Below are positions 2,270 to 5,370 of a stretch of 64,000 nt of DNA, piece by piece (positions within the stretch are counted from its first letter, which is position 1; each line of letters begins with the position of its first letter). A program made the translations under genes and the position numbers. Source of the stretch: an uncultured Thermus sp. (GTDB lineage: Bacteria; Deinococcota; Deinococci; Deinococcales; Thermaceae); the NCBI GenBank assembly GCA_947085095.1, contig CAMTVD010000014.1, forward strand, positions 96,001-160,000, given 5' to 3'. Under the pieces are notes generated by a model that saw only the letters and a program-made list of their open reading frames with translations, made no database searches and was not told the origin of the DNA.

Positions 2270-2458
2270 CCTGCCTTTGGCCCTCCCCCGCGGTTGTCCC
2301 CCCCTCGCGGGGCTGGCTTTCCCTTGGGGGTTCTTGGGCGGGCGGGGCGGGCACACCCCGGGCGGCATCCGCGGATCCCTCGATCTTTCCCGGCCTTGGC
2401 CGGTTATCCCCTTGCGGGGTCCGCCACCTCGTGAGGCCAGATGGCCCCCTGCGCTTCC
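2270..2458 (-). ncRNA. glmS ribozyme/riboswitch-like RNA, variant (3' boundary approximate)
   Basis: Minus strand reads AAGCGCAGG-GGGCC(AUCU)GGCCU-CACGAGG-U-GGCGG-[insert]-AUCGAG-GGAU-CCGCGG-AUG-CCGCC-CGGG(GUGUG)CCCG. Conserved blocks are in the same order as in canonical glmS ribozymes, in the glmS 5' UTR. Confidence 0.8.
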
Positions 2459-2670: not shown

Positions 2671-5370
2671 ATGAAGAAAAGGCTTGTCACACTACTGGCC
2701 GGGCTTTTGACCGTCCTCTCCATGGGGTTCGGTCTGGCCCAGTTCTCCGACGTGCCCGCTGGGCACTGGGCCAAGGAGGCCGTGGAGGCCCTGGCGGCCA
2801 AGGGGATCCTCGTGGGCTTCCCGGACGGCACCTTCCGGGGCAACGAGGGGCTCACCCGCTACCAGGCCGCCCTCATCATCTACCGCCTCCTGCAGCAGAT
2901 TGAAGAGGAGCTGAAGGCCAAGGGCACCTCCCCCACCATGGAGGCCCTTTCCGCTGAGGAGCTGGAGACTCTGAAGAACGCGGTCCAGGAGCTGGCTGCG
3001 GAGCTGGCCGCCCTGGGCGTGCGGGTCTCGGCCCTTGAGGACAGCGCCGCCACCAAGGAGGACATCGCCCGCCTCGAGGCCCTGATCGCCGAGCTAAAGG
3101 CCCAGCCGGCCCCCGAGCCCGGCATGGACGCCGCTGCCCTGCAGGACCTAGCCGACCGGGTGGAGGCCGCCTCCATCGCCGCGGACACCGCCTTGGCCCA
3201 GGCCCAGCAGCTGGCCGAGCAGCTTGATGCCCTGGCCCAGGACGTGGAGGGCGTGAAGGGTGACCTGGCGGCTCTTTCCACCCAGGTGGAGGCCAGCGCC
3301 CAGGCCATCCAGGCCCTGAACGAGCTGGCCGTCCTCCTCAACCAGGACGTCCTCACCCTGCAGGATCGGGCCACCGCCCTGGAGAAGGGGCTGGCCGACC
3401 TCAAGGCCCAGCTTGGGTCCATTGACTTTGAGGAGTTCGCCACCCGCGAGGACGTGGCCGCGGTGCAGGAGTTCGTGGCCGCCCTGCGCTCCGACCTGGT
3501 GAACCTCTCCGAGAAGGTGGCCAGGCTGGAGGGCACCGTGGGCACCCTTTCCGGCAAGGTGGCCACCCTGCAGCGCAACGCCTTCACCATCAGCGGGAGC
3601 CTGACGCTAACCTACACTGCCAGCGACGCTAATAACTTCGGTGCTTACGACATTGACCGTGTCATCGGGGGCACCTTCCTGTCCAGCGGCGACCCTGACA
3701 ACGACAAGAACGTTGTGGAGCACGCTGACCCTGTGACCTCCGTTTCTGGCTCCACCGCCGCCAGCCTGAGCCTCACCCTCAAGACCGGTCCCTTTGACGC
3801 CAAGTCGTCCGGCGGGGCCAACAGCTACCCCGGCCTGGTGCAGTTCAGCCTGACCGGCTCCTGGACGACCCCCGGCGTTGGCGCTTCGGTCGGCGCCAAC
3901 CTGGTGGTGGACAAGGTCTCCACCACCCTCGCCGTGGCCCGGGACCAGGCCCTCTCCTTCACCTTCGGCCAGTCGGTGAACACCAAGTTCACCGAGTACG
4001 TGATGGACAACGAGCGCAACAGCCTCGGCCATGGCTTCGTGGCCACCCTGAAGGGCCTGCCCCTGGGCACCACCGTCACCGCCGCCTATGGGGAGAGGGA
4101 CCCGGGCACCGCTAACTACGACTACTTTAGGGCCATCCGCTTGGCCATCGCCCCCAGCCAGGCTTTCTCCGTCGGCCTCTCCTACGCCCAGCATGACGCG
4201 CCCTCCGTCGAGGAGGTGGGAGGCGTGGACGGGAGCCTGGACCTGGGGCCCGTGAAGCTCTCTGGGGAGTACTTCCGCTTCGGCAACAACATCCTCGCGC
4301 CGGGCTACTTCGAGGGCGGCTATGTCCGGGCTGAGCTGGGCCCGGTGAAGGCCAACTATCGCGGCCTGGCACCTGGCGCCAACAACCCTGCTGGGCTCAG
4401 TAACGACAACGATAACCCCTTCCGGGACGGCCAGCGGGGCTTCACCGTGGAGGCGGGCCTGCCCCTCTTGGGCTTGGACCTGGGCCTCCTCTACAACCTC
4501 CAGATGGATAGCACCTTTGGCGTCCCCAGCGCCAGCGCCTTCCGGGCCAGCCTGGGCGTGGGCTTGCCTGCGGGCTTCAGCTTGAGCGCCCGGGTGACCT
4601 TAGCCAGCAACATCTCAGGCGAGTGGTTTCCCCAAACCCTCAACTTTGCTCCGGGCGTGCCTGGCCCCACTACCCCTACGGATTACGCCACCGCCATCAC
4701 CGCCAGCCTCAGGCACGATGGCGCAGCCCAGAACGCCGCCATCAAAGGGCTCAACCTCACCCTCGCCTACACTAACCGCACCCTATTGGGTGGACCTAAC
4801 GACGGCTTGGCCTTCTTCGGCGACTTCGGCGGCCTGGCCCTGGGTCCCCTCAGCGTGGACAAGGTGGTCTTCCGCTACAACGACAGCAACCTCCAGAACG
4901 CTGCTGCGGGCCAGACCCTGAAGGGCGGCATCCGGGGCGGCCTCAGCCTGGCGGGCCTGCCGCTTAGCCCTGCCATCACCGGGGAGTTTGCCACCCGGGT
5001 GAGCGACGGCGGTCTCTCCGAGACCAAGTTTGGCTTCGGCCTGAGGTTCGGCCAGTTCTTCTGGGACAAGAGCGTCCTGGAGGTCAAGGCGGCTCAGTAC
5101 AGCGCAGTGGGCCTTGTCATCACCCCTCCTAACACAACTGACGCTGATAGGGCCTTTGACGCTTCCGCCGACTCGCTCTACACCTCTGCGGCTGGCCTGG
5201 GCGGCAACCTCTCCGGCGTCTACGTGACCTGGACCTACTGGGACCTCTCCTTTGCCTACGGCTTCTTCAGCAACCAGACCCTGGGGACCCTCTTCTCCGA
5301 TATCTTCAACCGCACCACCACCGGGGACTACGGCCGCGCCTTCCGCATCAGGTACACCGTCAACTTCTAA
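2671..5370 (+). CDS. slpA: S-layer/outer-membrane protein SlpA (signal peptide, SLH domain, coiled coil, beta-barrel)
   Basis: [36 protein letters not shown] motif; long heptad region; beta-rich C-terminal half ending in Phe; AGGAGG SD; divergent from glmS as in Thermus. Confidence 0.95.

Follow-up and report, generated by a model that had tools for sequence, protein, structure and literature searches.

A probable variant glmS ribozyme with a two-hairpin core insertion in the leader of a Thermus glmS gene

Canonical glmS ribozymes reside in the 5' untranslated region (UTR) of glmS, where glucosamine-6-phosphate (GlcN6P) binds a preformed core and joins in acid/base catalysis, after which the cut mRNA is turned over; this is set out in PMC11602151, which also describes the internal loop (IL4) and the L4 tetraloop of the canonical P4 domain. 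We analysed a 64-kb stretch of DNA from an uncultured Thermus sp. (contig CAMTVD010000014.1), hereafter called the window, the minus strand of which carries a glmS gene preceded by a candidate ribozyme of this class. Variants from Deinococcus-Thermus, with additional stems in the catalytic core and altered core-supporting substructures, were reportedly described by McCown, Roth and Breaker in 2011. The Thermus-type variant is very probably already in the literature; helix P0 and the P2.2 register described below may or may not feature there. PMC5473149 cites the 2011 variants paper for members that had been overlooked because a substructure assumed to be conserved varied. Neither the Thermus-type build nor P0 was described in the full-text passages searched, which did not include the 2011 variants paper.

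The candidate spans positions 2462-2280 of the minus strand, to which all coordinates below refer unless the plus strand is named. It is very likely the organism's glmS ribozyme, in a build common to the whole family and to a neighbouring one, and would act by canonical GlcN6P-driven cleavage. The architecture is shown by conservation and covariation, and self-cleavage and GlcN6P dependence would be expected by analogy with the canonical system. The glmS coding sequence (428-2242; 604 residues; start codon ATG at 2242-2240, preceded by AGAAAGGGG) was identified by its scores against TIGR01135 (840.8 bits, cut-off 418) and NF001484 (854 bits), and its product begins with MCGIVGY. The element is located in the 5' untranslated leader of this gene, on the coding strand, and ends 38 nucleotides (nt) before the start codon; the 215 nt upstream of the open reading frame (ORF) carry the ribozyme blocks in order.

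Along the minus strand, the order is AA/GCGCAGG (the slash marks the predicted cleavage site), P1, CACGAGG (2433-2427), GGCGG, two hairpins, AUCGAGGGAUCCGCGGAUG, CCGCC and a G+C-rich 3' domain ending near 2280. A/GCGC, ACGAGG, AUCGA and GCGGAUGCC are therefore all present in glmS-ribozyme order, and the core motifs line up block for block with the consensus of RF00234, the glmS ribozyme model of Rfam, as seen in relatives. A search for the ordered motif AGCGCA..ACGAGG..GCGGATGCC gave a single match in the 64-kb window and none in 100 shuffles. Every position given in the preliminary description of this locus agrees with our minus-strand read. The element is wider at the 5' end than the extent proposed there, 2270-2458: it reaches 2462 when P0 is included, and the last structured pair lies at 2280.

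Relatives were drawn from an order-level genome sampling in which families are labelled f1 to f5 and genera g3 to g29, f1 being the family of the window. We aligned 31 leaders with MAFFT (alignment A2), wrote the structure on the row of the window and built a covariance model, R1, from this alignment. In a survey of 150 genomes of the order, R1 matched 35/35 genomes of f1, 18/23 of f4, 13/19 of f5, 5/36 of f3 and 0/36 of f2. R1 and RF00234 matches share coordinates in f5 and f3, and three loci are above the Rfam cut-off. For instance, G051:C1:2156007-2156168 scores 69.1 bits with R1 and 47.4 bits with RF00234, G109:C140:4422-4618 scores 52.4 and 55.5 bits, and G053:C1:27543-27725 scores 41 and 43.5 bits; at G063:C39:7530-7739, the scores are 76.5 and 31.7 bits. 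Since R1, which was built from Thermus-type leaders only, scores loci that are called by RF00234, the element is homologous to glmS ribozymes. The leader itself was recovered by blastn in 24/24 genomes of the same genus and in 4/4 genomes of f4.

Rfam 15 does not capture the Thermus-type form, and the window element does not reach the RF00234 gathering cut-off of 37 bits. Among 121 genomes of the order, RF00234 matched 26/26 genomes of g3, 16/19 of f5 and 0/16 of the window's genus; matches in g11 (4/8) and g4 (2/12) were all at 28.8 bits or less, under the cut-off. On such weak matches, RF00234 aligns AGCGCAGGG, P1, UACGAGGUGGCGG and GCGGAUGCCGCC correctly and then skips 33-49 nt at the place where a P2 hairpin of about 10-12 nt is expected. 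The relatives provide a natural comparison: RF00234 gives 42-55 bits to those free of the insert and 29.3-33.3 bits to g21, which carries it (6/6 genomes); f1 and f4, which carry it and have a different P2.2 as well, obtain at most 28.8 bits or no match at all. The missing RF00234 score shows where the model falls short; reaching its cut-off does not define the RNA family. Under lax Rfam filters, the 321-nt leader gave hits to BLV_package, mir-665 and CRISPR-DR36, which are unrelated families; these hits are at chance level and were rejected.

A tight Thermus-type signature, run over 185,579 species genomes, returned 77 stretches, 41 of which match R1. Thirty-six of these 41 records are labelled Thermus, Meiothermus, Thermaceae, Oceanithermus or Deinococcota, and the remaining 5 are labelled uncultured; one of these five is labelled Thermotogae, and its stretch is cut by a contig end. 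The other 36 stretches, from Microbacterium and other high-GC taxa, have no R1 match at E ≤ 0.01 and were discarded as coincidental or unrelated. Seven Microbacterium records (L114, L118, L120, L122, L130, L149 and L155) fit the 21-base gapped signature at near-equal spacing without matching R1, and are probably a conserved unrelated sequence, which may be coding. Within the order, neither model found a convincing glmS ribozyme in f2: R1 matched none of 36 genomes, and RF00234 gave 7 matches, in 6/26 genomes, at 14.7-19.5 bits. Family f2 may either have no ribozyme or feature yet another build.

Covariation was assessed in alignment A3, in which 66 R1 matches are aligned to R1, with 52 pairs in 12 helices, two pseudoknots outside the model included. 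In A3, 95.9% of the cells pair, versus 81.6 ± 0.4% in shuffled alignments (0/500 shuffles as high), and 42/52 pairs change on both sides, versus 23.1 ± 2.0 in shuffles. When the 3' partners were slid by 1-3 columns as a control, 38-55% of the cells paired. Because A3 is fitted to the model, the count was repeated on the structure-naive A2 (31 rows), where 95.4% of the cells pair versus 90.1%, and 20/52 pairs change on both sides versus 7.9 ± 1.7. Loops and hairpin tips are free to vary, and the core is invariant. The preliminary description had named covariation in relatives as a check on the structure, and the 42/52 pairs that change on both sides over 66 rows supply it. Its identification of a variant glmS ribozyme with a two-hairpin core insertion is likewise upheld by the motif order, by the loci shared between R1 and RF00234 and by covariation of both hairpins. 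Coding function was considered for two mechanical ORFs that overlap the leader (1932-2516 on the minus strand and 2277-2513 on the plus strand) and was rejected, as relatives carry 1-2-nt loop indels and compensatory stem changes.

The predicted scissile bond lies between A(-1) at 2455 and G(+1) at 2454, aligned with the A/GCGCC consensus of RF00234. AGCGCA is kept in 65/66 rows; in the exception (L080, from g29), the site is present behind a 136-nt P1 insert. P1 (2434-2447) pairs G8-C12 with G17-U21 around the loop AUCU. All five P1 pairs change on both sides (97.6% of the cells paired in A3, which is also the source of the helix counts that follow), and P1 length is very variable among relatives, with inserts of up to 136 nt. 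In g29 (L100, 369-484 and 668-698), the 136-nt insert consists of 8-nt tandem repeats, 6.2 copies of GAAGCGGT followed by 3.8 copies of the complement CGCTTCAC, which would lengthen P1 into a long helix; the same repeat is found again just downstream of that ribozyme.

The core strand ACGAGG (2427-2432) is present in 65/66 rows, L088 carrying ACGCGG. Its G is position 40, counted along the RF00234 consensus from the cleavage site, which we take to be the number of the general base in the B. anthracis structures. CACGAGG had been listed in the preliminary description as a difference from the canonical GACGAGG. This is ordinary variation, as the preceding base (2433) is C in 13 rows and G in 15 rows of the window's genus and U elsewhere, and varies among RF00234-detected members as well. 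P2.1 is formed by GGCGG (2421-2425) and CCGCC (2361-2365); 5/5 pairs change on both sides and 100% of the cells are paired, as exemplified by GGUGG/CCACC in g4. The P2 region AUCGA-GGGA-UC (2374-2384) would pair G74 with C81 and A75 with U80, and corresponds to uCGA...UCG of the RF00234 consensus; AUCGAG is at 2384-2379 and CCGCGG at 2374-2369. The P2.2 strands are C2 G3 C4, a bulged A5 and G6 (2449-2453) on the 5' side and C82 G83 C84 G85 on the 3' side, the latter followed by GAUG of the conserved GCGGAUG block (2366-2373). P2.1, P2 and P2.2 together form the double-pseudoknot core of a glmS ribozyme, with a P2.2 register unlike the canonical one.

The peripheral domain comprises P3 and its P3.1 pseudoknot, together with P4/P4.1, which encloses a purine-rich internal loop. 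P3 (2343-2360) pairs C95-G99 with C108-G112; 3/5 pairs change on both sides, and 100% of the cells are paired. The P3 loop includes the 5' strand of P3.1, GCCC (2352-2349), which would pair with GGGC at 2280-2283. P3.1 is absent from the model, and 4/4 of its pairs change on both sides (94.3% paired), with GAACC/GGUUC in g11. The P4/P4.1 domain (2285-2330) consists of an outer stem CCCCC/GGGGG, a GG/CC stem, the internal loop GAAA/ACAA and the inner hairpin CCCC-GCGA-GGGG, which carries a GNRA loop. In P4, P4a and P4.1 (helices 10-12), 13/13 pairs change on both sides and 89-98% of the cells are paired. The outermost P4 pair is C:G in the window and G:C in most relatives. In A2, GGGAAAGCC and GGACAAC are nearly invariant.

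One departure from the canonical fold is a 36-nt block (2420-2385) that holds two hairpins and lies between P2.1 and P2, a joint for which the RF00234 consensus allows about 3 nt. Hairpin Ia, CCCC-GCAA-GGGG (2408-2419), changes on both sides in 3/4 pairs with 97.9% of the cells paired in A3, and in 2/4 pairs with 100% paired in A2. Hairpin Ib, CCGGC-CAAG-GCCGG (2390-2403), changes on both sides in 4/5 pairs with 98.3% paired in A3, and in 3/4 pairs with 100% paired in A2. Ib was previously drawn as CCGGCC-AA-GGCCGG; the hairpin is real, but five pairs closed by a 4-nt loop describe it better, relatives having CCGG-GAAA-CCGG. The most vivid compensation is found in g11, in which UCUC...GAGA and GCAGC...GCUGC take the place of CCCC...GGGG and CCGGC...GCCGG of the window. 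Tips may be greatly enlarged: the Ia tip gains about 80 nt in g7 and at least 50 nt in g12, and the Ib tip of one g11 row (L089) gains about 110 nt. Because the tips tolerate such large additions, the hairpins must point away from the core.

The two hairpins are separated by the linker AUAA (2404-2407), which reads AU(A/U)A in nearly all insert-bearing rows; G47, A48, U49 and A51 are invariant in A2. A purine linker, GAAAG (2385-2389), precedes P2 and reads RAAAR in insert-bearing rows. The AU(A/U)A linker may be the counterpart of the canonical uUuA joiner. Such a correspondence would suggest that two insertions flank the joiner, rather than that one block replaces it. The insert is present in 61/66 rows, namely all rows of f1 (42), all rows of f4 (16) and three rows of f5 (g21 twice, g18 once). 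The five insert-free rows, which RF00234 scores best, belong to g15, g5 (two rows), g3 and g24. In L097 (g24) and in L032 and L039 (g5), the P2 loop itself gains 20-30 nt, and the joiner between P2.1 and P2 is short. Since g24 and g5 enlarge the P2 loop instead, the order holds several distinct ribozyme builds.

A further helix, P0, is predicted between GGCGGG (2457-2462; positions -8 to -3 from the cleavage site) and CCCGCC (2337-2342), directly after P3. In A3, 5/6 P0 pairs change on both sides and 91% of the cells are paired. Compensations include UUCGGG/CCCGAA, GACGGG/CCCGUU, CGCGGG/CCCGCG, GCGAG/CUCGC and GCGGA/UCCGC; P0 shrinks to GGG/CCC in g5, g3 and g18. In P2.2, pairs 2-85, 3-84 and 4-83 are standard in 65-66/66 rows, the single unpaired cells being those of L080. 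The preliminary description had proposed a compensatory shift of the P2.2 bulge, and the relatives agree with it: 57 rows have GC at pair 6-82, 6 rows have AU and 1 row has another combination. In the canonical register, the 5-82 pair would be A.C in the window and is unpaired in 58/64 rows and paired in 6/64; one row has U at position 5, uncompensated. All f1 and f4 rows have UCCGCGGAUG, and f5 and f3 have UCUGCGGAUG. These sequences are better explained by the shifted register, in which A5 bulges out and G6 pairs with C82, than by the canonical one.

Several observations weigh against the element being a glmS ribozyme of canonical action with the architecture drawn here. RF00234 matches nothing at the element, neither in the 8 kb of the window searched at E ≤ 1, nor in the 321-nt leader under the most permissive filters (E ≤ 10), nor at the leader when the whole genome of the window was searched, where the best hit, elsewhere, scored 11.6 bits; that standard models could miss the element had been foreseen in the preliminary description. 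Fold energy is no better than that of shuffled sequences (z = -0.12; 79/200 shuffles fold as well). As this value was obtained in a stretch of 73% GC, fold stability provides no evidence, and the case rests on conservation and covariation. Without guidance, the minimum-free-energy fold forms P0, P1, P2.1 and both hairpins. The aligned rows are kin and not independent, and A3 is fitted to the model for nested helices. Pairing numbers thus indicate consistency with the structure rather than independent events, because the rows are relatives.

The preliminary description had looked to P2, P2.1 and P2.2 for conservation or covariation in relatives; P2.1 covaries in 5/5 pairs, but P2 and three P2.2 pairs never vary and are consistent with pairing. 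Both P2 pairs are invariant in the 63/63 rows with letters, so that, with no covariation, P2 is compatible with the data but not proven. The change at 6-82 separates f1 and f4 from f5 and f3 and may have arisen just once. No residue clearly aligns with the conserved U of the canonical uUuA joiner, so the ligand pocket could differ. On the MAFFT alignment, just 1/6 P0 pairs changes on both sides. The J3/4 strand is mis-registered in other genera on that alignment, and P0 was therefore checked in an alignment-free manner, with each RNA anchored at its own cleavage site and P3 end (65/66 rows, L080 left out). Own strands form 5.74 contiguous pairs, versus 4.05 in 3,222 swaps between genera. In a set of 26 representatives that differ in the 5' strand, 5 P0 pairs are reached by 73%, versus 33% of swaps.

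The absence of an Rfam match and of a thermodynamic signal might suggest a chance resemblance or a decaying, functionless ribozyme relic. This is scarcely credible, given that the motif order was found in none of 100 shuffles, that the element is present in 35/35 family genomes with compensatory changes in 42/52 pairs, and that loops and tips vary freely around an invariant core. A different function is a more serious contender, though still quite unlikely. The RNA could keep the glmS fold and work unlike the Bacillus type, with another or no small-molecule cofactor, or as a GlcN6P sensor that does not cleave. The joiner into which the hairpins are inserted contributes to the ligand pocket of canonical ribozymes, and the insert takes the place of its uUu, the middle U of which is written in upper case (highly conserved) in the RF00234 consensus; the register of P2.2, next to the cleavage site, is altered, and no experiment on the Thermus-type form was found in the literature searched. 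However, four families share A/GCGC, AUCGA and GCGGAUGCC without variation, and ACGAGG is present in 65/66 rows, as would be expected of a working active site; the AU(A/U)A linker could supply the missing joiner residues, and the association with glmS is unchanged. It is also rather improbable, to much the same degree, that the Thermaceae-type RNA constitutes a structurally distinct glmS subclass, in which the joiner is rebuilt from a four-way junction with AU(A/U)A and RAAAR linkers and the substrate strand is clamped by P0. If so, cofactor affinity, specificity or product release would differ from those of the Bacillus type, with tuning, for example, to high temperature or to another GlcN6P set point.

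The two hairpins and P0 could instead be adaptations to high temperature, acting as clamps that hold the core folded at 65-75 C. We regard this as possible but on balance doubtful. The build is universal in sampled families labelled Thermus, Meiothermus, Oceanithermus and Thermaceae, the helices are G+C-rich, and peripheral helices can raise ribozyme thermostability in general, according to PMC11602151. In contrast, the same two hairpins are found in f5 (g21 and g18), with leaders of 50-60% GC and genomes of 4.3-5.2 Mb, and a shorter P0 (3-6 pairs) is also found in members without the insert. A role as thermal clamps would explain why the build exists and does not conflict with the element being a glmS ribozyme of canonical action.

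As a glmS ribozyme of canonical action, the RNA would operate as follows. The transcript would start near 2480 and fold into P1, the P2/P2.1/P2.2 double-pseudoknot core, P3/P3.1 and P4/P4.1. The two hairpins emerging from the joiner between P2.1 and P2 would make that joint a four-way junction; P0 would tie the 5' leader to the strand after P3, and A5 would be bulged, with G6 pairing with C82 in P2.2. Accumulated GlcN6P would bind the preformed core and serve as cofactor, and the RNA would cut itself between A2455 and G2454. The 5'-OH cleavage product is reportedly a substrate of RNase J (Collins et al., 2007), so the downstream glmS mRNA, with its 5'-OH end, would be degraded by this enzyme, and GlmS synthesis would fall in consequence. 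The genome of the window does encode RNase J (TIGR00649, 521 bits, cut-off 400).

The leader contains a predicted sigma-70-type promoter (2487-2516), recognized by its match to the consensus, with TTGTCA at 2516-2511, an 18-nt spacer and TATACT at 2492-2487 (10/12 consensus matches). Two promoter-like sites are present in 2150-2750, versus a mean of 0.0 in 50 shuffles. Because of the site at 2516-2487, transcription probably starts around 2480, which would place some 25 nt ahead of the predicted cleavage site. A search for sequencing runs returned 24, each with a share of 0.07-0.10 of the sampled words and in the form of contigs. A scan of 2150-2750 showed no terminator-like site, and relatives do not conserve the segment that separates the ribozyme from the start codon. 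A leader with no predicted terminator and an unconserved spacer fits a switch that needs no expression platform.

Additional features were noted around the ribozyme. A GGGG-AGAUUU-CCCC hairpin is possible at 2247-2270, between the ribozyme and the start codon; alternatively, its CCCC could pair with GGGG in the ribosome-binding site AGAAAGGGG. Other members of the genus do not conserve this segment, and it was not counted as part of the switch. A small hairpin, GGGGC-UUUU-GCCCC (2467-2480), is found at the predicted transcript start and is common only to the closest relatives of the window (rows L003-L005, L011 and L015). The second promoter-like site is located on the plus strand (2510-2539; TTGACA-18-TATGAT, 11/12 consensus matches); its -35 box overlaps that of the glmS promoter, so that the two sites lie back to back. 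It faces an ORF of 899 residues (2671-5370, plus strand), residues 23-131 of which match only the start of an "iron uptake porin" model, at 63.8 bits, below the cut-off of 100. This product may be a large envelope protein whose N terminus forms an anchor domain of the S-layer-homology type.

All 35/35 sampled genomes of the family carry a predicted glmS-regulating ribozyme that Rfam 15 leaves unreported. Because Rfam 15 misses this form, Rfam-based annotation shows these organisms as having no ribozyme, and surveys undercount the class. The 66-member alignment, with insertion-tolerant tips, P0 and the shifted P2.2, could seed a second or better Rfam model. The solved Bacillus and Thermoanaerobacter structures could usefully be compared with a putatively thermostable glmS ribozyme that has a four-way junction in its core. 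The value of the locus lies in annotation and structural comparison, and not in new biology.

Like the canonical ribozymes of RF00234, such as those of the B. subtilis, B. anthracis and Thermoanaerobacter tengcongensis types, the window RNA is located in the glmS 5' UTR and features A/GCGC, the ACGAGG strand, P2.1, the AUCGA...UC P2 region and the GCGGAUGCC block, as well as P3 with the P3.1 pseudoknot, a P4 purine-rich internal loop and a GNRA-capped P4.1. Unlike them, it has a 36-nt two-hairpin block in place of about 3 nt, and a P0 helix, in which leader positions -8 to -3 would pair with the strand that follows P3. At position 5, A stands in place of C and is apparently bulged, with G6 pairing with C82, and J3/4 is longer. 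Set against these known systems, the window RNA is a variant of a well-understood mechanism and not a new one.

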